Origin: Escherichia coli
Lineage (GTDB): Bacteria; Pseudomonadota; Gammaproteobacteria; Enterobacterales; Enterobacteriaceae
Length of the DNA stretch: 63,428 nt
Assembly: GCF_024223415.1 (NCBI RefSeq)
Contig: NZ_CP100504.1
Reading direction: 5' to 3' (one strand)
Under the pieces are notes generated by a model that did no database searches, was not told the DNA's origin, and saw only the letters and a list, made by a program, of their open reading frames with translations. Within the stretch, counting starts at the first letter, position 1, and the number at the start of each line of letters is the position of its first letter. This document shows, piece after piece, positions 9,401 to 24,364 of this stretch. The translations under genes were made by a program, and so were the position numbers.

Positions 9401-9565
9401 TTATAAAACTCCTTATGGTGTTTTTTTGGTGTTTGTTTGGGTGTTTTTTGGATTTTAAGTGGGTTTATTTGTCAAGTTTACCCCATTTTAACTATCAATC
9501 AATGATTATTTGTCTTGTTTTGGTGTTTTATTGGGTTTAGTGTGGGTTGTTTTTGGGTTTTGTTT
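9401..9565. other. parC centromere and promoter region
   Basis: G/T-rich iterated short repeats (ttttggtgttt, gtttgggtgtt and similar) on both sides of a promoter-like core directly upstream of parM. Confidence 0.6.
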
Positions 9566-9910
9566 GGCGGATAACAAAAGATGTCGCCGGGCTCCTCTTT
9601 TTACTGCGCCGGCTGACGCGGCGCGGCAGGAACGCTGCCTGTGGTCAGTGTCCCGCGTCCGGCCGGGCACGGGACGGGCGCTTTTACCGCTCCCGGCTGG
9701 CGTCGGTGACAGTGTACGCCAGCCCGTCGCCCTTTTCTGATGAGCGCCCTTCAAGCCGCTTTCGCGGCATAACCTTGCCGTCAGAAAGACGACGGCTGCG
9801 GTATTCCACGGTCGGCCTGACCCGTTACCGGGCGCGGTGAACAGCCCACAGGCAGCGGGGAACGGGCGCCACAGGGGCGCCCTCCCGATGCTCCTGTGAG
9901 GATAATTCCC

Positions 9911-10837
9911 ATGCCAAACTGGTGCTCGAATCGTATGTATTTTTCTGGTGAACCGGCACAGATCGCTGAGATTAAACGACTGGCCAACGGTGCAGTCACA
10001 CCGCTTTATCGCCGCGCCACAAATGAAGGTATTCAGCTGTTTCTGGCCGGAAGTGCCGGACTTCTGCAGACCACTGAAGATGTGCGGTTTGAACCATGCC
10101 CCGGACTGACGGCTGCCGGACGTGGTGTTGTATCTCCGGAGAATATAGCGTTCACCCGCTGGCTGACACACCTGCAGAACGGTGTACTGCTGGATGAGCA
10201 AAACTGCCTGATGCTGCATGAAATCTGGCTGCAGAGCGGTACTGGACAGCGTCGCTGGGAAGGATTACCGGACGATGTCAGGGATACCATCACCGCACTT
10301 TTCACCGCAAAAAGAGGTGACTGGTGTGGCTTCTGGAGTAACGAGGATGTATCGGTGTGGTGGAACCGTCTGTGTGACAATGTACTGCCGGAAAAAAACA
10401 TGCCGTTTGACCTGCTGACGGTTCTGCCGACCCGCCTTGATGTTGAAGTGAATGGCTTCAACGGTGGTGTTCTGAACGGTGTTCCTTCTGCATATCACTG
10501 GTATACAGAACGGTATGGTGTCAAGTGGCCTTGTGGTTATGACCTGAATATCAGCAGTCAGGGGGAAAACTTCATTCAGGTGGATTTCGACACGCCGTGG
10601 TGTCAGCCGGAAAGCGACGTTATTGCAGCATTAAGCCGCCGTTTCAGCTGCACGCTGGAGCACTGGTATGCCGAACAGGGCTGTGATTTCTGTGGCTGGC
10701 AGTTGTATGAGCGCGGAGAGCTCGTTGATGTGCTGTGGGGGGAGCTGGAATGGTCTTCCCCGACAGATGACGATGAGCTGCCGGAAGTCACCGGACCTGC
10801 GTGGATAGTCGACAATGTGGCGCATTATGGCGGATGA
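9911..10837 (+). CDS. conserved leading-region protein of unknown function (DUF1281-like by recollection)
   Basis: ATG at 9911 preceded by gagga; ~308-aa Cys/Trp-rich protein; identity is from memory of IncF leading-region ORFs only. Confidence 0.55.
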
Positions 10838-11241
10838 AGTATGACGGAGACGGGCGGGCAACCGCCCGTTTCTTTTCCGGTAAAGGATGTCGCCGCAGGC
10901 TCCGCTTTACCCGGCCATGCGGGGCATGGCCTTGTGGATTTTCAGTTATGTGGCCTCAGCGTCGTGTGCGGGCTGTGCCGTGCCTCCATCGTAGCCGGGC
11001 TTCTGCGGGCGGGTTGCAAGGTAAGGTGAACCGCTGCGGTCACCCGGTCCCTCCTTCCCGTCTGCCGTGATTTTCCGGTCGTTCACCCGCTCAGATTTCG
11101 CGGTCTCACCCTCCAACTCCCGCCAGCCGTGTGCGTCAGGCTGCGGCTTCCCTTGCGCCCTTGCAACCCTGCAGGCCCGGCAAAGATGGAGGCACGGCAC
11201 CGCCCGGTGTCGCGGAATATGTGAACAACGGAGGAAATCCC

Positions 11242-11667
11242 ATGCAGTATGCGAAACCTGTCACTCTGAATGTTGAAGAGTGCGACCGTCTCTCCTTTCT
11301 GCCTTACCTGTTTGGCCAGGATTTTCTGTATGCCGAGGCATCTGTGTACGCGCTGGCGAAAAAAATGATGCCGGAATATGACGGCGGATTCTGGCACTTC
11401 ATCCGCCTGCCGGACGGTGGCGGTTACATGATGCCGGATGGCGACCGTTTCCACATGGTGAACGGTGCAAACTGGTTTGACCGTACCGTGAGTGCTGATG
11501 CCGCAGGCATCATTGTGACTTCCCTTGTGATTAACCGTCAGTTGTGGCTGTACCACGACAGCGGTGATGCAGGACTGACTCACCTGTACAGGATGCGCGA
11601 TGCGCAGTTGTGGAGCCACATCGAATTTCACCCCGAATGCAATGCGATTTACGCGGCACTGGACTGA
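11242..11667 (+). CDS. klcA: antirestriction protein KlcA/ArdB family
   Basis: 141 aa from an internal ATG with RBS ggagga; KlcA-like motifs (FLPYLFG, PDGGGYMMPD, SADAAGIIVT, AIYAALD). Confidence 0.8.
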   Translation: MQYAKPVTLNVEECDRLSFLPYLFGQDFLYAEASVYALAKKMMPEYDGGFWHFIRLPDGGGYMMPDGDRFHMVNGANWFDRTVSADAAGIIVTSLVINRQLWLYHDSGDAGLTHLYRMRDAQLWSHIEFHPECNAIYAALD

Positions 11668-12136: not shown

Positions 12137-12324
12137 ATATCAGCACAGAAACCCGCGAAATTCTGCGTAATTACAGGGCCGTGATTAATGCGCGGCGTCG
12201 TGAAATGGGGCAGAAACCGCTCACCACCGCGCAGATTGTTGATGAAATCTGCGATTTTGTGGCGAATCAGCAGGCGGTTTTCCTGGGCGGTCACTACATC
12301 TTACAGGGCAGCAGAAACAGGTGA
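12133..12324 (+). CDS. small hypothetical protein
   Basis: 63-aa ORF whose ATG overlaps the upstream stop (atgtcATGa), suggesting translational coupling. Confidence 0.45.
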   Translation: MNISTETREILRNYRAVINARRREMGQKPLTTAQIVDEICDFVANQQAVFLGGHYILQGSRNR

Positions 12325-12514
12325 TACAGGGGCAGGCGGTGGAGGCCGCCTGTCAGCCCGCGCGAAAACCCCTGGCAGGCTGACGCCTGCCGGAAGGGAA
12401 GCGGGCCACGCTGGCGCGTCGCCCGTTACCCTTCCCGTCTGTGATGTGTCTGACTCAGGAGTGTTTCTTTCTTATGTTATGGAACTGTTCCTGATGTTGT
12501 TGTTCCTTTATCTG

Positions 12515-13125
12515 CTGCTCTGATTCTGACTACTGCAGTGTTGTTCTGTCTGCCGGGCGCACCTTCGGCTCCCGGCTGCCTGGCGGCATCCGGTCGTCAG
12601 GCCCGACTCCGACAGGCAGCTGCTGGCGCACCCGCCAGTCTCCGCCGAACCCGCTGGCGCGGTTTCGGGCTGTCGCTACGGTCCGATGCGTGAAAACCCC
12701 GGGCTTGCAGCGACCGTTCCGGTCGCGCCGCCTCTGTCGCGCCGTGGCCTGCGCTCCAGGCATCCCGGCAAAAAGACGCCGGGATGTAAGGCGCAACGCC
12801 GTTTCGCAAACCGCGCTTCACGTCGTTGCTGCGGGTCCCTGCTCATTGCCTGCCGGGTGCCACACACCCGTATGAGTCCCTGTCGCCGGGGGCATAGACA
12901 GCCACAACCTGCCGCACTGACTGTCCAGGGTAAATGAACAGCCCACAAAATTTTTTACCCAAAACCCGGTAAAAAATTTTGCGTTCTGCCCAGGACAGGT
13001 GCGTCAGGCCGTGGCAGTGATGCCCCTTGCGGCGAAGGTTCTCAAACGGGTGAAGTTCATACCACAGGGAATACAGCAGCAGGTTCCCGCGAAACGTCAA
13101 AACTGCGGCTCCCGAAACTCAACGG
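12515..13125. repeat. leading-region ~620-bp direct repeat, copy 1 (Frpo/ssi-like)
   Basis: Near-identical by eye to 15867-16496 and 21269-21897; GC-rich with internal hairpins such as aaaattttttacc-(9 nt)-ggtaaaaaatttt. Confidence 0.85.
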
Positions 13126-13363
13126 GTGATGTTCTTTAAAAATCAGGATTTATTTCAGGCTCCGGCAATACGCATTTATGTGTTCTGTCAGTCATCCGGC
13201 TGGCAGGTAATGAGAACGCAGGAACAGAAGGAGGAAAACACCGGAGAACGTCAGACGCAGATATGAAAAAAGCAGGTCAGGGACCTGCTTAATCCACGCC
13301 GTAAGAATTGCGCAACCAATTTTGACGGCATTGTTAACCAATTTGTCATAAGGAGTTTCATTT

Positions 13364-13594
13364 ATGACGGTAAGTATTGTTTCACCTTCCGCAGCGGCTG
13401 TAAAGCCCCGCCGTCATCCCCGTTTCAGACGCGAAGACATCCCCGCGCCGGAAATTGACCCCGTGCTGAAAGCCTTCGGGCGACACATAGCCCGGAGTTT
13501 TCACCGGGGGCGTGGTGTACACATCCCCGCCATGAAAAACACGGCCTTCGGGCAGGTGCTCCGCACACTCGAACTGAAACGCGCTTTTAACTGA
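13364..13594 (+). CDS. small basic hypothetical protein
   Basis: 76-aa ORF with RBS aggag 8 nt upstream; first ORF downstream of repeat copy 1. Confidence 0.4.
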   Translation: MTVSIVSPSAAAVKPRRHPRFRREDIPAPEIDPVLKAFGRHIARSFHRGRGVHIPAMKNTAFGQVLRTLELKRAFN

Positions 13595-13645
13595 TGAGGT
13601 GAGCCGCCCCGCGAGGGGCGGCAACAGATGGAAGGAGAACATTTT

Positions 13646-15007
13646 ATGACATTAGCAGCAATCACCATGACCGCCTCGGAAGCCGCCAACCCTGTGCAGA
13701 TGTACCGCGCGACCTACTCACCGGATGACAACAAACTGCGCCTGTATGCCGCGTCACGTCTTGACCCGGAGACGTATAAAAAAGTGCATGATGCCGGTTT
13801 TCGCTGGGCACCCAAACAGGCGCTGTTTGTCGCGCCAGCCTGGACACCGGGCCGGGAAGACGTGCTCCTCTCACTTGCCGGAGAGATTGAGGATGAAGAC
13901 AGCACGCTCGCTGAACGTCAGGAAGCACGGGCGGAGCGGTTTACCGGATACAGCGGAAAGCGGGCCAGTGAATCCGCACAGGCACTTGATGAAGTGGAAA
14001 GACTGGCCGCGATGATCCCGCCCGGTCAGCCCATTCTTGTGGGGCATCACAGCGAACGCCGCGCCCGTCGTGATGCGCAGCGTATTGAAAACGGCATGAA
14101 ACGTGCCGTGATGCTCTTTGAACGTGCGGAATACTGGGAGGAGCGGGCGCGGTCGGCACTGCTTCACGCGAAGTATAAAGAACGCCCGGACGTTCGCTGG
14201 CGTCGTATCAAAAAAATCGAAGCGGATTTGCGCAAGGCTGAAAAGACCATCGCGCAGTCGCAGAAATATCTGACGATGTGGCGGGCTGAATCGCTGGATC
14301 TGAATATGGCAAAACTCATCAGCAGTCATGACCATATCAGCGCCTGTTTCCCGCTGGACAGGTATCCGCGCCCGGCAGAAAAAAGCCAGTATGAAGGAAG
14401 TCGATCGTTATGGTCGGCCCTGGATGATGACATCATCACCACGGAGCAGGCCCGCGAAATTGCGATCCGCTGTCATGAACGGCAGATTCAGCATCAACAA
14501 CGCTGGGTTAACCACTATCAGAACCGCCTGATCTATGAGCGTGCCATGCTGGACGAAAGCGGCGGCGTGGTTACCCGGACACAGGATTTTGAGCCGGGCG
14601 GACAGGTTTTCAGCCGGGGCGAGTGGCTGACCATCATCCGCGTGAACAAAAGCAACGGGGCGGTGAGTTCAGTCACAACGCCGAATTACAGTTTTCTCGG
14701 GTACAGCGGCACGATGAAAGTGACACCCGATCGCATCACGGACTACAAAGCACCATCGGCAGAAGAGGCTGCCGTCGCCAGTCAGGCCGCGAAGCGTCCG
14801 CCGGTAGTCAACTATCCGGGGGAAGGTTTCCGGGAAATGACAAAGGCGCAGTGGGCCGCCCTGCCCCGGGACTGTAAGGCCGTGCGCAGTGTGGCAGAGA
14901 CAGAAGACCACGGGGCATACCGCTACCGCCGCACAATGGACAATAATTTCCGCCTGGTGAATGTGTATATCACCGACATGAAAATCACGGAAATCCCACA
15001 GAAATAA
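13646..15007 (+). CDS. large conserved leading-region protein of unknown function (DUF3560-like by recollection)
   Basis: ~453 aa from the ATG at 13646 (RBS aggaga); immediately followed by an orphan DNA methyltransferase. Confidence 0.6.
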   Translation: MTLAAITMTASEAANPVQMYRATYSPDDNKLRLYAASRLDPETYKKVHDAGFRWAPKQALFVAPAWTPGREDVLLSLAGEIEDEDSTLAERQEARAERFTGYSGKRASESAQALDEVERLAAMIPPGQPILVGHHSERRARRDAQRIENGMKRAVMLFERAEYWEERARSALLHAKYKERPDVRWRRIKKIEADLRKAEKTIAQSQKYLTMWRAESLDLNMAKLISSHDHISACFPLDRYPRPAEKSQYEGSRSLWSALDDDIITTEQAREIAIRCHERQIQHQQRWVNHYQNRLIYERAMLDESGGVVTRTQDFEPGGQVFSRGEWLTIIRVNKSNGAVSSVTTPNYSFLGYSGTMKVTPDRITDYKAPSAEEAAVASQAAKRPPVVNYPGEGFREMTKAQWAALPRDCKAVRSVAETEDHGAYRYRRTMDNNFRLVNVYITDMKITEIPQK

Positions 15008-15053
15008 GGTATATCCCCCCGGGAAATCCCCGGGGGATGACGGAGATAATGAC

Positions 15054-15617
15054 ATGCACAGTCAGTTAAGAGAACGTATCCGGCTGATGCGCGCAAGGCT
15101 GGATAACGCCGCGCCGGTTGCTGAAATCCGGGCTGAATCTCAGCTTTTTGTGACTCCTGCCCCGGTCTGTGATCGCCTGGTGACGCTGGCGGAAATCAGC
15201 AACCGTGATCACATTCTGGAACCCTCTGCCGGCACCGGGGCCATACTGCTGGCGATTCGGGATACCGCGCCGGAGGCCATGTGTGATGCGGTGGAGATTA
15301 ACAGCGGGCTGGTCCGGTATCTGCGGGAAAATTTTAACGGTGTCAGGGTACAGTGTGGCGACTTCATGGAATGGCAGCCGGTGCAGTATTACAGCCGGAT
15401 CATTATGAATCCGCCGTTCAGTCACGGGCAGGATATCCGGCATATCCTGCGGGCTTTTTCCCTGTTGCGTCCGGGGGGCGTTCTGGTTGCCGTCTGTCTC
15501 AACGGGCCGCGCCAGCAGGAGAAGCTGTTACCGTTTTCTGACGTCCGCGAGGAGCTGCCGCGCGGCACGTTTGCTTATACCGATGTCCCGACGATGATTA
15601 TTCGTTTGCGTGCCTGA
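15054..15617 (+). CDS. orphan SAM-dependent DNA methyltransferase (amino-MTase, NPPF motif)
   Basis: 187 aa with a SAM-binding-like segment (ILEPSAGTGAILLAI) and catalytic motif IIMNPPF; no adjacent restriction endonuclease. Confidence 0.75.
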   Translation: MHSQLRERIRLMRARLDNAAPVAEIRAESQLFVTPAPVCDRLVTLAEISNRDHILEPSAGTGAILLAIRDTAPEAMCDAVEINSGLVRYLRENFNGVRVQCGDFMEWQPVQYYSRIIMNPPFSHGQDIRHILRAFSLLRPGGVLVAVCLNGPRQQEKLLPFSDVREELPRGTFAYTDVPTMIIRLRA

Positions 15618-15796
15618 TGACACAGGGCTGGCGGGAGGATAAATGCCCGTCTGTCCGCGCCGGGAAAAGACCGCGCGCCGGTGGCGCTGAAAGGGGCCGC
15701 GCTCACGCGCCGCCCCTTTCATTACGCGGACGTTCTGATGGGGGCTTCTGTCTTTTCAGACCTGTCATTTGTCTGTTACTGATGATGTTGTTGTTC

Positions 15797-15855
15797 CTGC
15801 TACTGCTACTGCTACTGCTACTGCTACTGCTACTGCTACTGCTACTGCTACTGCT
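15797..15855. repeat. hexanucleotide tandem repeat (CTGCTA)n, about 10 units
   Basis: ctgcta repeated in tandem immediately 5' of repeat copy 2; copies 1 and 3 have only a short unrepeated ctgct(g)ctc stretch at the equivalent position. Confidence 0.9.
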
Positions 15856-15866
15856 CTTCTTTTTCC

Positions 15867-16496
15867 TGCTGCTCTGATTCTGACTACTGCAGTGTTGTTC
15901 TGTCTGCCGGGCGCACCTTCGGCTCCCGGCTGCCTGGCGGCATCCGGTCGTCAGGCCCGACTCCGACAGGCAGCTGCTGGCGCACCTGCCAGTCTCCGCC
16001 GAACCCGCTGGCGCGGTTTCGGGCTGCCGCTACGGTCCGATGCGTGAAAACCCGGCTTGCAGCGACCGTTCCGGTCGCGCCGCCCCTGTCGCGCCGTGAC
16101 CTGCGCTCCAGGCATCCCGGCAAAAAGACGCCGGGATGTAAGGCGCAACGCCGTTTCGCAAACCGCGCTTCACGTCGTTGCGGCGGGTCCCTGCCCGTTG
16201 TTGTGTCCGGTGCCATTCACCTGTTTAAGCCCCTGTCGCCGGGGGCTGATACAGCCACAACCTGCCGCACTGACTGTCCAGGGTAAATGAACAGCCCACA
16301 AAATTTTTTACCCAAAACCCGGTAAAAAATTTTGCGTTCTGCCCAGGACAGGTGCGTCAGGCCGTGGCAGTGATGCCCCATGCGGCGAAGGTTCTCAAAC
16401 AGGTGATGGTGAATACCGGAGGGAACAAAGAGCAGGTCCCCGCAAAACGTCAAAACCGCGGCTCCCGAAACTCAACAGATGATGGGGGCTGAAAAC
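15867..16496. repeat. leading-region ~620-bp direct repeat, copy 2 (Frpo/ssi-like)
   Basis: Near-identical to copies 1 and 3; ends about 20 bp upstream of ssb. Confidence 0.85.
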
Positions 16497-16517
16497 ATCA
16501 ACAGAAGGAGACACATC

Positions 16518-17045
16518 ATGGCAGTTCGTGGCATTAACAAGGTCATTCTTGTCGGTCGTCTGGGAAAAGATCCGGAAGTCCGTTACATCCCAAACGGGGG
16601 CGCAGTGGCAAACCTGCAGGTGGCCACGTCAGAAAGCTGGCGCGACAAACAGACGGGGGAGATACGGGAGCAGACAGAATGGCATCGCGTGGTGCTGTTC
16701 GGCAAGCTCGCGGAAGTGGCTGGTGAGTATCTGCGCAAGGGCGCGCAGGTCTACATCGAAGGTCAGCTTCGCACCCGTAGCTGGGAGGATAACGGTATCA
16801 CCCGTTACGTCACCGAAATTCTTGTTAAGACCACGGGCACCATGCAGATGCTGGGACGTGCCGCAGGTACTCAGACTCAGCCGGAAGAGGCGCAACAGTT
16901 CAGCGGTCAGCCTCAGCCGGAATCACAGCCGGAACCGAAAAAAGGAGGCGCGAAAACGAAAGGCCGTGGACGTAAGGCCGCGCAGCCGGAGCCTCAGCAG
17001 CCGTCTGAACCCGCGTATGACTTCGATGACGACATTCCGTTCTAA
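16518..17045 (+). CDS. ssb: plasmid single-stranded DNA-binding protein
   Basis: Starts [23 protein letters not shown] (OB-fold SSB); Gln/Pro-rich tail ending DFDDDIPF; RBS aggaga. Confidence 0.9.
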
Positions 17046-17058
17046 CGAAAGACAGTGA

Positions 17059-17334
<276 letters not shown>

Positions 17335-17397
17335 GAGAGGTGCCGGACGGGAACGCGTCCGGCAGACATACAACCATCCCGGTCAAAGGAGAAATAT

Positions 17398-19354
17398 ATG
17401 TCAGTTACAGAGTCTAAGACAAAAACGGAGCGTAAATCCAGCCGTAAACCTGCAAAAACGCAGGAAACTGCACTGTCTGCCCTGCTGGCGCAGACGGAGG
17501 AAGTGAGCGTGCCGCTGGATTCACTGATTAAATCACCGCTGAATGTGCGCACGGTGCCGTATTCTGCGGAGTCCGTCAGTGAACTGGCTGATTCCATTAA
17601 GGGAGTCGGCCTGCTGCAGAATCTGGTTGTTCATGCCCTGCCAGGTGACCGTTACGGTGTCGCCGCAGGTGGTCGCCGACTGGCAGCACTCAACATGCTG
17701 GCAGAGCGTGACATCATTCAGGCTGACTGGCCTGTCCGCGTGAAAATTATTCCGCAGGAGCTGGCGACGGCTGCATCGATGACCGAGAACGGTCATCGTC
17801 GGGATATGCACCCTGCCGAACAGATTGCCGGATTCCGTGCAATGGCGCAGGAAGGCAAAACGCCTGCACAAATCGGTGATTTGCTGGGCTATTCACCCCG
17901 CCACGTTCAGCGAATGCTGAAACTGGCAGACCTTGCGCCTGTCATCCTCGATGCGCTGGCAGAAGACCGCATCACCACAGAACACTGTCAGGCGCTGGCG
18001 CTGGAGAACGACACCGCGCGTCAGGTGCAGGTGTTTGACGCTGCCTGTCAGTCGGGATGGGGCGGTAAACCGGATGTGCGGGTTATCCGCAATCTGATTA
18101 CGGAAAGTGAAGTGGCGGTGGCGGGGAACAGTAAATTCCGCTTCGTGGGGGCTGATGCTTTCTCGCCAGACGAACTGCGCACCGATTTGTTCAGCGACGA
18201 CGAGGGTGGCTATGTCGACCGCGTGGCGCTCGATGCTGCCCTGCTGGAAAAACTCCAGGCTGTCGCTGAACACCTTCGGGAAGCCGAAGGCTGGGAATGG
18301 TGCGCCGGACGCATGGAGCCTGTCGGTGAGTGTCGTGAGGATGCCGGAACCTACTGCTGTCTGCCGGAGCCGGAAGCGGTGCTGACGGAGGCGGAAGAAG
18401 AACGCCTGAACGAACTGATGACGCGTTACGACGCGCTGGAAAACCAGTGTGAGGAATCCGACCTGCTGGAAGCAGAAATGAAGCTGATGCGCTGCATGGC
18501 GAAGGTCAGGGCGTGGACGCCGGAGATGCGTGCCGGAAGCGGTGTCGTGGTGTCCTGGCGTTACGGTAATGTGTGTCCAGCGTGGTGTGCAGTTGCGCAG
18601 TGAAGATGACGCGGCTGACGACGCTGACCGCACGGAACAGGTGCAGGAGAAAGCATCAGTGGAGGAAATCAGTCTGCCGTTGCTGACGAAAATGTCCTCA
18701 GAGCGCACGCTGGCAGTCCAGGCGGCACTCATGCAGCAGCCGGACAAATCTCTGGCACTGGTGGCATGGACGCTCTGCCTGAATGTGTTTGGCAGCGGGG
18801 CGTACAGTAAACCAGCACAAATCAGCCTGGAATGTGAACATTATTCGCTGACCAGCGATGCGCCATCGGGGAAGGAAGGTGCCGCATTCATGGCGCTGAT
18901 TGCAGAAAAAGCCCGTCTTGCTGCCCTGTTACCGGAGGGATGGTCACGGGACATGACGACATTCCTTTCACTCAGTCAGGAGGTGCTGTTATCCCTGCTC
19001 AGTTTCTGCACCGCATGCAGCCTTAACGGTGTCCAGACCCGTGAGTGTGGTCACACGTCACGCAGTCCGCTTGACTCGCTGGAAACCGCTATCGGATTCC
19101 ACATGCGCGACTGGTGGCAGCCGACAAAAGCAAACTTCTTCGGACACCTGAAAAAGCCGCAGATTATCGCAGCCCTGAATGAGGCAGGACTGTCCGGTGC
19201 CGCACGGGACGCGGAGAAGATGAAGAAAGGTGATGCGGCTGAACATGCAGAGCACCATATGAAAGACAACCGCTGGGTTCCAGGCTGGATGTGTGCACCA
19301 CATCCACAGACAGATGCCACTGAACGCACCGATAACCTGGCTGATGCCGCCTGA
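17398..19354 (+). pseudogene. ParB-like nuclease domain protein, reading frame interrupted
   Basis: Two overlapping ORFs (17398-18603 and 18530-19354) in different frames; the frame switch maps to a gtgtgt dinucleotide run near 18575; joined length ~650 aa. Confidence 0.6.
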
Positions 19355-19408
19355 TGAACAACCACACCGCCCCGCCGGAGACGGGGCGGCAGCAAGGGAG
19401 ATACCGTG

Positions 19409-19843
19409 ATGAAAACTGAACTGACCCTGAATGCCCTGCAGTCCATGAACGCACAGGAATATGAAGATATCCGGGCTGCCGGAAGTGATGAACGCCGTGA
19501 GCTGACACACGCCGTGATGCGGGAACTGGATGCGCCGGACAACTGGACGATGAATGGCGAGTACGGCAGCGAGTTCGGCGGCTTTTTCCCCGTCCAGGTC
19601 CGTTTCACGCCTGCCCACGAACGTTTTCACCTGGCGTTATGTTCACCGGGCGATGTCTCTCAGGTCTGGGTGCTGGTTCTGGTGAATGCCGGTGGTGAGC
19701 CGTTTGCGGTGGTTCAGGTGCAGCGGCGGTTTGCACCGGAAGCTGTCAGCCATTCACTGGCACTGGCGGCGTCACTGGATGCGCAGGGGTACAGCGTTAA
19801 CGACATCATTCATATCCTGATGGCGGAAGGAGGTCAGGCATGA
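19409..19843 (+). CDS. psiB: plasmid SOS inhibition protein PsiB
   Basis: [40 protein letters not shown]... matches PsiB; RBS agggag. Confidence 0.9.
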
Positions 19844-20559
19844 GCGCACGTTCACAGGCACTGGTTCCTCTCAGCACAGAGCAACAGGCCGCATGGCGGG
19901 CGGTGGCGGAGACCGAAAAACGCCGCCATCAGGGTAACACGCTGGCTGAATATCCGTATGCGGGTGCGTTTTTCCGCTGTCTGAACGGAAGCCGGAGGAT
20001 ATCGCTGTCTGACCTGCGATTTTTCATGCCGTCCCTGACCGCAGAAGAACTGCACGGCAACCGTCTTCAGTGGCTGTATGCCATCGATGTGCTGATTGAA
20101 ACACAGGGCGAGGTCTGCCTCCTTCCCCTTCCCGGTGATGCAGCAGAGCGCTTGTTCCCGTCGGTGCGGTTTCGTGTCAGGGAACGCAGTCGCCATAAAT
20201 CCGCGCTGGTCATGCAGAAGTACAGCCGCCAGCAGGCGAGGGAGGCAGAGCAGAAAGCCCGTGCGTACCAGGCGCTGGTCGCTCAGGCTGAAATCGAACT
20301 GGCATTCCATTCGCCGGAAACAGTCGGAAGCTGGCATGCACGCTGGAGTGACCGGGTGGCAGAGCATGACCTGGAAACCCTGTTCTGGCAGTGGGGCGAG
20401 CGTTTTCCGTCACTGGCCGGAATGGAACGCTGGCAGTGGCAGGATATGCCGTTCTGGCAGGTTATTGCGGAAGCCAGTCTTGCAGCAAGAGAGGCCGGTC
20501 ACGCTGTCCGTGAGATGGAGCGGTGGATGGTGCCGAACAAACTCCGGGAGGCAGCGTGA
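19840..20559 (+). CDS. psiA: plasmid SOS inhibition protein PsiA
   Basis: 239-aa ORF overlapping the psiB stop; matches PsiA of F-like plasmids. Confidence 0.85.
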
Positions 20560-20739
20560 TGCGGCAACAATCACACGGATTTCCCGTGAACGGTCTGAAT
20601 GAGCGGATTATTTTCAGGGAAAGTGAGTGTGGTCAGCGTGCAGGTATATGGGCTATGATGTGCCCGGCGCTTGAGGCTTTCTGCCTCATGACGTGAAGGT
20701 GGTTTGTTGCCGTGTTGTGTGGCAGAAAGAAGATAGCCC

Positions 20740-20810
20740 CGTAGTAAGTTAATTTTCATTAACCACCACGAGGCATCCCTATGTCTAGTCCACATCAGGA
20801 TAGCCTCTTA
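20740..20810 (-). ncRNA. sok: Sok antisense RNA (approximate)
   Basis: Placed by position antisense to the mok/hok leader, from the known organisation of hok/sok loci; exact ends not determinable by eye. Confidence 0.35.
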
Positions 20811-20993
20811 CCGCGCTTTGCGCAAGGAGAAGAAGGCCATGAAACTACCACGAAGTTCCCTTGTCTGGTGTGTGTTGATCGTGTGTCTCACACTGTTGAT
20901 ATTCACTTATCTGACACGAAAATCGCTGTGCGAGATTCGTTACAGAGACGGACACAGGGAGGTGGCGGCTTTCATGGCTTACGAATCCGGTAA
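20781..20993 (+). CDS. mok: Mok (modulation of killing) overlapping reading frame
   Basis: 70-aa ORF overlapping hok in another frame, as in R1 hok/sok. Confidence 0.55.
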
Positions 20994-20997
20994 GTAG
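20839..20997 (+). CDS. hok: Hok family membrane toxin
   Basis: 52-aa product [52 protein letters not shown]. Confidence 0.85.
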
Positions 20998-21268
20998 CAA
21001 CCTGGAGGCGGGCGCAGGCCCGCCTTTTCAGGACTGATGCTGGTCTGACTACTGAAGCGCCTTTATAAAGGGGCTGCTGGTTCGCCGGTAGCCCCTTTCT
21101 CCTTGCTGATGTTGTACGGGCATGAACAACCTGACTTCAGGAAGGTCGTTTCCCTTCAGGAACGGGGATGAACGCGCGCCTGCGGCGCCCGTTCTTTTCC
21201 CCCGCCTTCTCTGGTTATGGCCTGTCAGAAATCACATCACCTTCCCTGTGATTATTCTCTTTTTCTTC

Positions 21269-21897
21269 CTGCTCTGATTCTGACTACTGCAGTGTTGTCC
21301 TGTCTGCCGGCGCACCTTCGGCTCCCGGCTGCCTGGCGGCATCCGGTCGTCAGGCCCGACTCCGACAGGCAGCTGCTGGCGCACCTGCCAGTCTCCGCCG
21401 AACCCGCTGGCGCGGTTTCGGGCTGTCGCTACGGTCCGATGCGTGAAAACCCCGGGCTTGCAGCGACCGTTCCGGTCGCGCCGCCTCTGTCGCGCCGTGG
21501 CCTGCGCTCCAGGCATCCCGGCAAAAAGACGCCGGGATGTAAGGCGCAACGCCGTTTCGCAAACCGCGCTTCACGTCGTTGCGGCGGGTCCCTGCCCGTT
21601 GTTGTGTCCGGTGCCATTCACCTGTTTAAGCCCCTGTCGCCGGGGGCTGATACAGCCACAACCTGCCGCACTGACTGTCCAGGGTAAATGAACAGCCCAC
21701 AAAATTTTTTACCCAAAACCCGGTAAAAAATTTTGCGTTCTGCCCAGGACAGGTGCGTCAGGCCGTGGCAGTGATGCCCCTTGCGGCGAAGGTTCTCAAA
21801 CAGGTGATGGTGAATACCGGAGGGAACAAAGAGCAGGTCCCCGCAAAACGTCAAAACCGCGGCTCCCGAAACTCAACAGATGATGGGGGCTGAAAAC
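21269..21897. repeat. leading-region ~620-bp direct repeat, copy 3 (Frpo/ssi-like)
   Basis: Near-identical to copies 1 and 2; ends about 20 bp upstream of the ORF at 21918. Confidence 0.85.
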
Positions 21898-21917
21898 CAG
21901 AGAGAGGAGAAAGCTGG

Positions 21918-22205
21918 ATGAGTACCCGAAATATCCACGTTAACACCGCGTCGTACACGATTCTTGTTGCCGGGAGGGAAAAAAACACCGGGGAAGAGTG
22001 GGACGTCCTGGAATTCAGCAGCCTGACTGAGCTGAAAAAATATCGCAAAAGCCACCCGGAAAAGATGGCCTTCAGCTATAGCTACGCGCTCAGCCGGGGT
22101 GTGGATACGCAGTTCCGCCATATCAACATTGCGGAAGCCGATCACTTCAAACAGTTCCTGCGTCAGATTAAGCGTGCCGGCCTCGATATCCGGGCGATCT
22201 GCTGA
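21918..22205 (+). CDS. hypothetical leading-region protein
   Basis: 95-aa ORF with RBS gaggaga; first gene downstream of repeat copy 3. Confidence 0.5.
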   Translation: MSTRNIHVNTASYTILVAGREKNTGEEWDVLEFSSLTELKKYRKSHPEKMAFSYSYALSRGVDTQFRHINIAEADHFKQFLRQIKRAGLDIRAIC

Positions 22206-22323
22206 CCGGATGTGATGAATATCCCTCCTGATTGTTGCAATCTTGTTAATGGAGATCGGGAGAGATGATATTAAGCGGAAAAATTTTTTATTAAATTTAT
22301 TCTTTCATAAAGGAGTAGCTGTT

Positions 22324-23145
22324 ATGCGATTAGCTTCCCGTTTTGGTCGGTATAATTCCATCCGTCGTGAACGTCCTTTAACGGATGATGAATTAATGCA
22401 GTTCGTGCCTTCGGTATTTTCCGGTGATAAACATGAGTCCCGGAGTGAACGTTATACGTATATTCCAACAATCAATATCATCAATAAGTTACGTGATGAA
22501 GGTTTCCAGCCATTCTTTGCCTGTCAGAGTCGGGTTCGTGATTTGGGACGCCGCGAATACAGTAAACATATGTTACGTCTTCGCAGGGAAGGGCATATTA
22601 ACGGGCAGGAAGTTCCTGAAATTATCCTGCTTAATTCACATGATGGTTCATCCAGTTATCAGATGATCCCCGGAATTTTTCGTTTTGTCTGCACAAATGG
22701 CCTGGTGTGCGGAAATAATTTTGGCGAAATCCGTGTTCCACATAAAGGTGATATTGTCGGGCAGGTTATCGAGGGAGCGTATGAAGTGCTCGGTGTCTTT
22801 GATAAGGTCACTGATAATATGGAGGCGATGAAAGAAATTCATCTTAACAGTGACGAGCAACATTTATTTGGCAGAGCTGCACTGATGGTCAGGTATGAAG
22901 ATGAAAATAAAACGCCAGTGACGCCTGAACAAATAATTACTCCCCGTCGTCGGGAAGATAAAAAGAACGATCTCTGGACAACCTGGCAGCGGGTTCAGGA
23001 GAATATGATAAAAGGTGGATTATCGGGGCGAAGTGCCTCCGGGAAAAATACCAGGACAAGAGCCATTACAGGTATTGATGGTGATATAAGAATCAACAAG
23101 GCGTTATGGGTGATTGCCGAACAGTTCAGAAAGTGGAAGTCATGA
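22324..23145 (+). CDS. DUF932-like leading-region protein
   Basis: 273 aa from the ATG at 22324 (RBS aggag); conserved partner of orf169 near oriT in F-like plasmids. Confidence 0.65.
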   Translation: MRLASRFGRYNSIRRERPLTDDELMQFVPSVFSGDKHESRSERYTYIPTINIINKLRDEGFQPFFACQSRVRDLGRREYSKHMLRLRREGHINGQEVPEIILLNSHDGSSSYQMIPGIFRFVCTNGLVCGNNFGEIRVPHKGDIVGQVIEGAYEVLGVFDKVTDNMEAMKEIHLNSDEQHLFGRAALMVRYEDENKTPVTPEQIITPRRREDKKNDLWTTWQRVQENMIKGGLSGRSASGKNTRTRAITGIDGDIRINKALWVIAEQFRKWKS

Positions 23146-23949: not shown

Positions 23950-24364
23950 TTTTCCACCTCTGGTGACTTTATCCGTAAATAATTTAACCCACTCCACAAA
24001 AAGGCTCAACAGGTTGGTGGTTCTCACCACCAAAAGCACCACACCCCACGCAAAAACAAGTTTTTGCTGATTTACGTTTTAAATCATGTAATTAACAAAT
24101 GCTATTTATATTTAATTATTCTGAATTATTAAATAGAGAGTCGTTGGCGATCCTGTTACGACCCTATAGCGACCCTTATTAGGATCAGTACTGACAATTT
24201 TCATGAAAAACATTGATATATATTAGGGGCACCCCTAGCGCCGGATCGCATTTTTTTATAGGATAATCCTAGAGGCGCTACTAGGAGTGTCTTTCTTACT
24301 TGTAAACACTATATTCATATTTATACTGAAAAGTTCATTGCTTAATGATGAAAGGTTTTATTTT
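23950..24364. other. oriT (origin of transfer) with F-type nic site
   Basis: Minus strand reads gcaaaaacttgtttttgcgtggggtgt/ggtgcttttggtggtgagaaccacc, matching the F oriT nick region; nick falls between 24039 and 24040 on the minus strand; AT-rich region upstream of traM. Confidence 0.8.

Follow-up and report, generated by a model that had tools for sequence, protein, structure and literature searches.

Three leading-region repeats of an Escherichia coli IncF plasmid as probable class-1 single-stranded DNA promoters accompanied by structured upstream modules

Class-1 single-stranded DNA (ssDNA) promoters of the plasmid leading region have been described as Frpo1 and Frpo2 in F and as ssi1-3 in ColIb-P9/pESBL. 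Deletion of Frpo1 or Frpo2 abolishes early expression of ygeA and ssb/yfjA in F transconjugants (PMC9849209), and ssi1-3 are three dispersed class-1 homologues whose transcription starts were mapped by 5′ rapid amplification of cDNA ends (PMC12672017). A survey counted 13,089 Frpo homologues in 6,006 elements (PMC11541004). A 2013 paper reported three Frpo repeats in one plasmid and a single hybrid repeat in a related one, in the context of recombinational deletion (PMC3817090). Here we analysed three direct repeats in the leading region of an IncF (MOBF/MPF_F) E. coli plasmid, contained in a 63,428-nucleotide stretch of contig NZ_CP100504.1 (the window). An earlier reading of this DNA, hereafter the original prediction, had proposed that the repeats are Frpo/ssi-type promoters that fold in the incoming single strand.

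The repeats are known class-1 ssDNA promoters (Frpo1/Frpo2, ssi1-3), and the idea is already published. We conclude that each of them very probably holds a promoter of the Frpo/ssi family. Frpo homology, strand assignment, fold, covariation, strand bias and the lack of a conventional plus-strand promoter are results of this analysis; ssDNA-dependent transcription, zygotic induction and priming come from the published work on F and pESBL, from which we infer the activity of these particular copies by analogy. Less familiar, and beyond the account given in the original prediction, is a covarying module upstream of the hairpin, which we consider a modest lead. Frpo-type promoters time the first seconds of plasmid establishment, before the double-stranded state is reached, and the functions that they drive (SOS inhibition, ssDNA protection, anti-restriction and methylation) have a bearing on the spread of resistance plasmids.

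Three direct repeats on the leading side of oriT

The repeats and the nic motif of oriT lie at the following positions.

12506-13131, minus strand: repeat copy 1, 93.5% identical to copy 2 and 93.7% to copy 3 (BLAST; alignment of the copies)
15858-16496, minus strand: repeat copy 2, at the position of F Frpo2/ssp1b (BLAST)
21258-21897, minus strand: repeat copy 3, 98.4% identical to copy 2 (BLAST), at the position of F Frpo1/ssiD/ssp1a
24036-24047, minus strand: oriT nic motif GGGGTGT/GGTGC, an exact F-type match

Pairwise BLAST, the alignment check named in the original prediction, confirmed three direct repeats (E=0 in each comparison). Copy 1 (12506-13131) was 93.5% identical to copy 2 (15859-16484) over 629 columns and 93.7% identical to copy 3 (21252-21885) over 636 columns, and copies 2 and 3 (15858-16496 and 21258-21897) were 98.4% identical over 641 columns with 7 mismatches and 2 gaps. 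When the whole window was searched against itself with word size 7, these three copies and no fourth were recovered. The coordinates given earlier were correct to ~10 bp. The description of the copies as almost identical was right for copies 2 and 3 but not for copy 1, whose 6-7% divergence from them falls largely in the basal stretch of the hairpin described below; likewise, GC-rich was apt for the 5′ half of each repeat (GC fraction 0.62-0.65) and less so for the 3′ half (~0.54). Overall, the three direct repeats are real, and the original prediction both located and interpreted them correctly. Copy 2 recurs with 100% identity in pTB-nb3 and in five further plasmids, and at least 5000 plasmid records hold a match to it, usually in three places per record; the whole leading region is ~98% identical to that of pTB-nb3.

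A perfect hexamer array, (CTGCTA) x 9.8 at 15797-15855, directly precedes copy 2, and a coordinate offset suggests that it is ~4 units longer than in pTB-nb3. Comparable sequence lies ahead of the repeats in other plasmids: CT-rich tracts or other hexamer arrays occur as (CCTGTT)n in Citrobacter and as CTTCTT/CCTCTT runs in F. In the transferred strand such tracts are rich in purines and lack structure.

The repeats had been read as non-coding, and this proved correct. The copies are separated by indels of 1 and 2 bp, the open reading frames (ORFs) inside them differ from copy to copy and lie in different frames, and none of the six internal ORFs searched matched an NCBIfam family. A protein-coding gene in the repeats was rejected on these grounds. 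We also rejected a coding reading for the Leu-rich ORFs that run into the first bases of the repeats, whose translations are Arg/Gly-rich, end in poly-Leu and are mutually dissimilar. A search of the repeats against Rfam 15 gave zero gathering-level matches, and at E <= 1 only a chance microRNA match (E = 0.74).

These data bear on the idea that the repeats are functionless copies of a mobile element resembling a miniature inverted-repeat transposable element, or the remnants of a duplicated gene. Such an origin would account for several copies per plasmid in variable number (1-8 places per record), for the "hypothetical proteins" that the NCBI Prokaryotic Genome Annotation Pipeline (PGAP) places inside the repeats, and for the shuffling of modules between plasmid groups. 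We nevertheless find it scarcely credible: the orientation and position of the repeats relative to the leading-region operons are constant, indels between the copies shift the frame, the internal ORFs match no protein family, and substitutions track base pairing rather than codon positions.

The nic motif lies on the minus strand, with traM, traJ and FinP immediately to its right, and the nick presumably falls between 24041 and 24040, the site within the motif being that of F oriT. Thus the minus strand is transferred and the leading region enters first, as the original prediction had stated. The repeats lie 2.1-11.5 kb from nic on the leading side. Copy 3, at ~2.1-2.8 kb, arrives first in the recipient and copy 1, at ~10.9-11.5 kb, last. 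All of the flanking downstream genes are on the plus strand, and the layout of repeats upstream of same-strand gene blocks is as described earlier.

A Frpo-homologous hairpin in the transferred strand

The transferred strand of each copy contains a long hairpin (H).

12801-13118, minus strand: hairpin H of copy 1, apical loop 12960-12967 (minimum free energy (MFE) fold with DNA parameters)
16153-16471, minus strand: hairpin H of copy 2, apical loop 16313-16320, outermost pair 16471-16153 (covariation, 23 sequences)
21554-21872, minus strand: hairpin H of copy 3, apical loop 21714-21721 (fold as in copy 2)

As a reference we used the 351-nt F ssiD sequence (the Frpo of Masai and Arai) from supplement 4 of PMC11541004. 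Its full length aligned to copy 3 (21540-21889) at 88.5% identity and to copy 2 at 88.2%, and its nucleotides 17-351 aligned to copy 1 at 81.2%; these matches span 340-357 aligned columns with E-values from 6e-120 to 1e-72. Frpo1 and Frpo2 of F (NC_002483) match the hairpin together with the adjoining module B at 89-94%, and they sit at the positions of copies 3 and 2. Together with the strand and the covarying hairpin, this homology bears out the proposed Frpo/ssi-type identity. The homology lies in the 3′ half, and the Frpo hairpin accounts for only about half of each ~630-bp unit, a point that the original prediction missed. Each repeat is modular, consisting of A, B and H, and its 5′ ~290 bp lie outside the classical Frpo.

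Folding of the minus strand, which the original prediction had suggested as a check, gave the same long, stable, imperfect hairpin of 318-319 nt in all three copies. The MFE of the whole repeat was -179.9 kcal/mol for the transferred strand and -170.2 kcal/mol for the complement in copy 1, and -185.9 and -169.1 kcal/mol, respectively, in copy 3; copy 2 reached -189.5 kcal/mol, with a z-score of -9.8 against shuffled sequences. The transferred strand is favored over its complement by 10-17 kcal/mol in the three copies. When the first 26 kb were folded in sliding windows of 300 nt, the three repeats were among the most structured sites of the transferred strand.

We then examined covariation in 23 distinct copies from 10 plasmids, with sequences drawn from PLSDB records: F, two Klebsiella IncF plasmids, IncI-gamma pO113, and Salmonella, K. 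oxytoca, Enterobacter and Citrobacter plasmids. The MFE structure of copy 2 was projected onto the alignment, with slid partners and 500 shuffles as controls. Paired cells amounted to 81.9%, compared with 40-44% when partners were slid; 62 pairs had changed on both sides (31-41 in the slid controls), and the covariation score was 0.176 (0.054-0.068 in the slid controls). For four of the five measures, all 500 shuffles stayed below the observed value; for the fifth, further pair types, 1/500 attained it. The hairpin was more stable in the transferred strand than in the complement in 23/23 copies, by a mean of 16 kcal/mol, and this strand comparison is an unbiased check on the projected fold. 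RNAalifold on the raw MAFFT alignment recovered the long hairpin only in part.

The strand bias also speaks to the possibility that the conserved structure acts in plus-sense RNA, as a terminator, a 3′-end stabilizer or a riboswitch-like element of a 5′ untranslated region, rather than as folded DNA. The repeats are inter-operonic, hence 3′ of one operon and 5′ of the next, any DNA hairpin is also a hairpin in its RNA copy, and the small hairpins of module B have no clear wobble strand bias (20 G.T versus 36 A.C cells). Action as RNA is nonetheless very unlikely, given that the minus-strand fold is the more stable one in all 23 hairpins and in 13/13 copies of module A, that G.T pairs exceed A.C cells in the hairpin by 195 to 85, that a scan of the repeat ends found no strong-stem hairpin followed by a T-run, and that the repeats match no Rfam family.

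A sequence scan of 12300-13700, 15700-16600 and 21000-22300 found no plus-strand sigma-70 consensus promoter; at the level of sequence, then, the downstream genes have no conventional duplex promoter. Within the hairpin we found two candidate hexamer pairs, whose -10-like hexamers both lie in one conserved internal loop. The arm of each candidate is a tentative assignment.

16246-16280, minus strand: 3′-arm (arm B) candidate promoter of copy 2, running from loop to base, outward (equivalents 12893-12927 in copy 1 and 21647-21681 in copy 3, both minus strand)
16370-16398, minus strand: 5′-arm (arm A) candidate promoter of copy 2, firing toward the loop (equivalents 13017-13045 in copy 1 and 21771-21799 in copy 3, both minus strand)

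In copy 2 the arm-B pair consists of TGGACA (16280-16275) and, after a 21-nt spacer, TGTATC, with TGTATC/TATCAG (16253-16246) in the internal loop; upstream of it are an A/T tract (16299-16313) and the unpaired TTCATTTA. The arm-B segment resembles the class-2 arm-B sequence GTTCACCTTACCTTGCAA. The arm-A pair consists of TTGAGA (16398-16393), a 17-nt spacer and CATCAC (16375-16370), the ATC of which is unpaired in the internal loop. TTGAGA-17-CATCAC is the best positionally conserved sigma-70-like pair and occupies one alignment column in 18/23 copies. We lean slightly toward the outward 3′-arm arrangement because CCCTGGAC is nearly universal in the 23-copy family alignment, because arm B resembles the class-2 3′ arm, in which TTGCAA-18-TACGAT is unambiguous, because the published description of Frpo places an UP element upstream of the -35 (PMC11541004), and because the minimal Frpo2 construct that is active in vivo includes the arm-B segment and lacks the pairing partner of TTGAGA.

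According to the mechanism that we propose, the minus strand would enter the recipient 5′-first from the nick at ~24040, bringing in copy 3, then copy 2 and then copy 1. While single-stranded, the ~318-nt Frpo-homologous segment would fold into an imperfect hairpin and present a pseudo-duplex with -35/-10-like hexamers, the -10 lying in the internal loop, to host sigma-70 RNA polymerase. The transferred strand would serve as the template for transcription into the plus-strand genes: the ORF and DUF932 gene from copy 3, ssb-psiB-psiA from copy 2, and the ORF, DUF3560 and methyltransferase genes from copy 1. Complementary-strand synthesis would iron out the hairpin and thereby turn the promoter off, and the transcripts could also prime that synthesis.

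Several points weigh against this reading. No hexamer pair passed the sigma-70 filter (9/12 with A2 and T6), the best pair reaching 8/12. The two hexamer placements share one internal loop and are mutually exclusive, and we infer which arm bears the -35 and -10. The alignment represents ~5-6 independent lineages, such that the cell counts overstate the number of independent compensatory events, and the projected structure is copy 2's own fold, which is favored over the slid controls on percentage paired. Finally, ~245 nt and an antisense RNA gene separate copy 1 from its first ORF, and the output of this copy may be regulated differently.

Structured modules A and B

The part of each repeat outside the hairpin contains the following elements.

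15912-16045, minus strand: module A of copy 2, a multi-helix element (profile matches, alignment of 13 sequences)
12558-12691 and 21311-21444, minus strand: the equivalents of module A in copies 1 and 3
16048-16152, minus strand: module B of copy 2, with hairpins h1 (16113-16138) and h3 (16062-16078)
12761-12786 and 12710-12726: h1 and h3 of copy 1
21514-21539 and 21463-21479: h1 and h3 of copy 3

Module B adjoins the hairpin in all 10 of the plasmids compared. Its hairpin h3 is GCGACCG-GAA-CGGTCGC, flanked by the conserved GCGGCGC and GCTGCAAGC; across the family the invariant flanks are GCGGCGC and GCWGCAAGC. Among the 23 copies 100% of the h3 cells were paired, with 5/11 pairs compensatory, and the stem occurs as GACCG/CGGTC, ATCCT/AGGAT and GGCCG/CGGCC. 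The corresponding value for h1 was 93.8% of cells paired.

The fold of module A comprises several helices, some of them long-range. In an alignment of 13 sequences, which represent about four lineages, 98% of its cells were paired compared with 26-43% in slid controls, 18 pairs were compensatory compared with 1-4, and the covariation score was 0.339 compared with 0.02-0.07. The transferred strand was the more stable in 13/13. Profile matches in the sequences compared placed module A 9-30 nt from B+H in 14/14 cases, and 14/24 B+H copies carry it. The module is absent from both F copies, in which B+H follows a different upstream module, and in one Klebsiella plasmid it is found in copy 1 only. 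In IncI-gamma plasmid pO113 module A is 98.5-99% identical; module A and the first 62 nt of B are 95-99% identical there, beside IncI-type hairpins that match at ~82% over 80 nt. We found no match to modules A and B in Rfam 15 or, with copy 2 15905-16160 as the query, in 50,697 phage records, and no account of the upstream modules in the literature examined.

Both modules lie outside the 328-nt Frpo and outside the working minimal Frpo2 construct and thus are probably not needed for promoter activity itself. They sit immediately 3′ of the hairpin on the template, which is the side on which read-through transcription and complementary-strand synthesis arrive, and this position suggests an insulator or roadblock, or a priming signal. 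It is a tentative proposal that the 5′ ~290 bp (module A plus module B with h3) are a functional unit in their own right, acting in the transferred strand and accompanying class-1 promoters. Our speculation as to its role, by analogy with ssp2, is an insulator or roadblock that would prolong the single-stranded life of the promoter: modules A and B would protect the hairpin from being melted or converted by read-through RNA polymerase of the upstream operon or by the replisome of complementary-strand synthesis. If true, the upstream module could reveal the means by which a plasmid holds a promoter in single-stranded or insulated form until it has had time to act.

Modules A and B are also relevant to the suggestion that the repeats serve mainly as ssi signals for complementary-strand synthesis, through an RNA polymerase primer or through an upstream module that recruits primase or the PriA primosome, and not as gene promoters. 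The compact multi-hairpin ssDNA fold of module A is superficially like that of phage G4-type origins. Moreover, ssiD is the name under which Frpo was originally isolated, RNA made from it primes Pol III in vitro (PMC7690428), and early rifampicin-sensitive conversion occurs in vivo downstream of ssp1a and ssp1b (bioRxiv 2026.01.09.698686). Priming is compatible with promoter function, however, and the two are not exclusive. Loss of downstream expression upon deletion of Frpo1 or Frpo2 (PMC9849209) argues for promoters, as does the placement of the hairpins of copies 2 and 3, whose ends lie 46-47 nt from downstream genes with good ribosome-binding sites. In addition, the 13-sequence alignment contains no conserved CTG start motif in module A, and a primer made at module A would at once convert the adjacent promoter to duplex. 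We therefore consider a mainly priming role possible but doubtful, and continue to regard the repeats as promoters.

A group II intron (ltrA) in the orientation of the transferred strand lies at the upstream edge of copy-1 module A (~A position 44) in K. pneumoniae p420184-KPC (17616-20137 of its stretch), and a second Klebsiella plasmid has an ltrA intron in its leading region. Insertion of the intron probably accounts for plasmid matches that start at query position 54, and structured ssDNA may be a preferred intron target. Enterobacterial IncF leading-region sequence also turned up in two short contigs labelled Streptomyces morookaense DSM 40503, with module A 100% identical to the window and, in one of them, the ltrA intron at the module A edge; this is almost certainly contamination of the assembly. 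A scan of genome contigs with the 15-mer GACCGGAACGGTCGC was too unspecific to be of use, as almost all of the 120 stretches returned were chance matches in GC-rich genomes. The relevant ones were three Citrobacter loci and the two contaminated "Streptomyces" contigs.

Recombination, gene context and comparison with known systems

The original prediction had also suggested recent homogenization of the repeats and recombination between them, and both are supported. Over B+H, copies 2 and 3 are 99.3% identical, whereas copy 2 is 93.9% identical to F Frpo2 and copy 3 is 87.0% identical to F Frpo1; the two F copies are 85.8% identical to each other, and a Klebsiella IncF plasmid has two identical copies. 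Gene conversion would be expected to give this pattern, in which copies 2 and 3 resemble each other more than they resemble the repeats at the corresponding positions of F. Forty sites distinguish copy 1 from copy 2, and F Frpo2 has the copy-1 state at 15/16 5′ sites and the copy-2 state at 22/24 3′ sites. The ORF/DUF3560/methyltransferase cassette, which in the window stands between copies 1 and 2, is absent from F. Because F Frpo2 is a copy-1/copy-2 chimera and the cassette is missing, F looks like a deletion derivative that arose by crossover within the hairpin. The switch of state in F Frpo2 (10182-10602 of the F stretch) falls near the internal loop and leaves the basal stem partly mismatched, and within the F-like set no hairpin is less stable (-84.6 versus -102 kcal/mol), which may have a bearing on the reported weaker phenotype of Frpo2. 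Long near-identical units would in this way undergo gene conversion, and homologous recombination between them would add or remove the cassettes that they enclose. The window is a clear example of repeats that homogenize and recombine to gain and lose leading-region cassettes.

The risk of recombination between the two Frpo copies of F was already noted, and flm (hok/sok-like), which lies between them, would guard against deletion (PMC9849209). Rfam found a sok match between copies 2 and 3 of the window. In pO113 a third Frpo-type copy (18078-18277 and 20232-20374 of its stretch) is split by IS100 (IS21 family).

The gene blocks downstream of the repeats are as follows.

13364-15617, plus strand: block after copy 1 (ORFs; PGAP names from the ~98%-identical pTB-nb3)
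13364-13594, plus strand: small ORF of the block after copy 1
13628-15007, plus strand: DUF3560 gene of the block after copy 1 (name from the pTB-nb3 annotation)
15054-15617, plus strand: class I S-adenosylmethionine (SAM) methyltransferase gene (weak methyltransferase-fold matches; pTB-nb3 annotation)
16518-20559, plus strand: block after copy 2 (ssb, DUF905, ParB-like, psiB, psiA)
16518-17045, plus strand: ssb (NCBIfam SSB, 2.6e-110)
17398-19354, plus strand: ParB-like gene, frameshifted (NCBIfam ParB domain, 4.8e-18)
19406-19843, plus strand: psiB (NCBIfam PsiB, 1.4e-83)
19840-20559, plus strand: psiA (NCBIfam PsiA, 4.8e-127)
21918-23145, plus strand: block after copy 3 (ORFs; PGAP annotation of pTB-nb3 and F)
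21918-22205, plus strand: 95-aa ORF, the positional counterpart of F ygeA
22243-23145, plus strand: DUF932 gene, the positional counterpart of F ygeB (name from the pTB-nb3 annotation)

Between the end of the repeat and the next start codon lie 22 nt for copy 2 (ssb ATG at 16518) and 21 nt for copy 3 (ATG at 21918), and 233 nt separate the end of copy 1 from its first ORF (13364). Within the latter interval Rfam placed AS-pc01, an antisense RNA first seen in pHK01, at 13267-13369 on the minus strand, where it overlaps the start of the small ORF. Of the three operons, only that of copy 1 has such an RNA, which is equipped with a promoter-like site (13404 to 13376) and a terminator (13290 to 13270) of its own. 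Compared with pTB-nb3, 2 bp are missing near 18570, and the ParB-like gene consequently falls into two ORFs, 17398-18603 and 18530-19354; it is either a pseudogene or the product of a sequencing error.

Two other structured sites lie further along the leading region.

10850-11260, minus strand: long transferred-strand hairpin (-107.8 kcal/mol, z -5.05), directly upstream of a KlcA/ArdB-like antirestriction gene (11242-11667)
9560-9910, minus strand: structured transferred-strand segment (-103.3 kcal/mol, z -5.28, 69% GC), ending at the start of the DUF1281 gene
9896-10837: DUF1281 gene (Pfam, 2.2e-48)

In sequence the hairpin at 10850-11260 is similar to Frpo' 4, a candidate published from an insect metagenome, and it has TTGCAA-18-TACGAT in its 3′ arm, part of which resembles the class-1 3′ arm. 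From the likeness to Frpo' 4, this hairpin is a candidate class-2-like (ssp2-type) ssDNA promoter. The published ssp2 primer had no match in the window within 3 mismatches. The segment at 9560-9910 may be a further ssDNA promoter of another class. For annotation, three class-1 ssDNA promoters and at least one class-2-like hairpin would thus take the place of "hypothetical proteins".

Another parallel is with the M13/f1 minus-strand origin and the sso of rolling-circle plasmids, in which folded ssDNA is read by host RNA polymerase as a promoter-like duplex for primer synthesis. Those origins are known only to prime DNA synthesis and not to drive operons, and the copy 2 query 15905-16160 had zero sequence matches in the 50,697 phage records. 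The analogy between such origins and Frpo has also been drawn in PMC7690428. Class 2 and 3 promoters (ssp2, or "Frpo3", upstream of ardB/klcA, and ssp3) are likewise long GC-rich hairpins of the transferred strand that precede leading-region operons (PMC12672017; bioRxiv 2026.01.09.698686; bioRxiv 2025.04.03.647016), but they are single-copy and have no overall sequence homology to the three repeats. A role as a replication roadblock has been demonstrated for ssp2, not for class 1 (bioRxiv 2026.01.09.698686).

R1-R3 of pO26-CRL125 are likewise three imperfect direct repeats that contain Frpo (PMC3817090). In pO111-CRL115 there is one hybrid repeat, and the 9.7 kb between the repeats are missing (PMC3817090), a situation like that of the F Frpo2 chimera. 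Those plasmids have IncI-type backbones and the whole leading block was lost, whereas the comparison made here concerns IncF plasmids and only the ORF/DUF3560/methyltransferase cassette. The ssi1-3 of IncI1 ColIb-P9/pESBL are also three dispersed direct repeats of the leading region, each preceding an operon and each with the same kind of hairpin, but that hairpin is strongly diverged from ours (~82% over ~80 nt around the tip); the aligned identity to the IncI-gamma pO113 copies is ~53%. Frpo1 and Frpo2 of F are direct homologues with matching positions, strand relative to nic and hairpin. F differs in having two copies of a ~455-bp unit (B+H), whereas this plasmid has three copies of a ~630-bp unit that includes module A.

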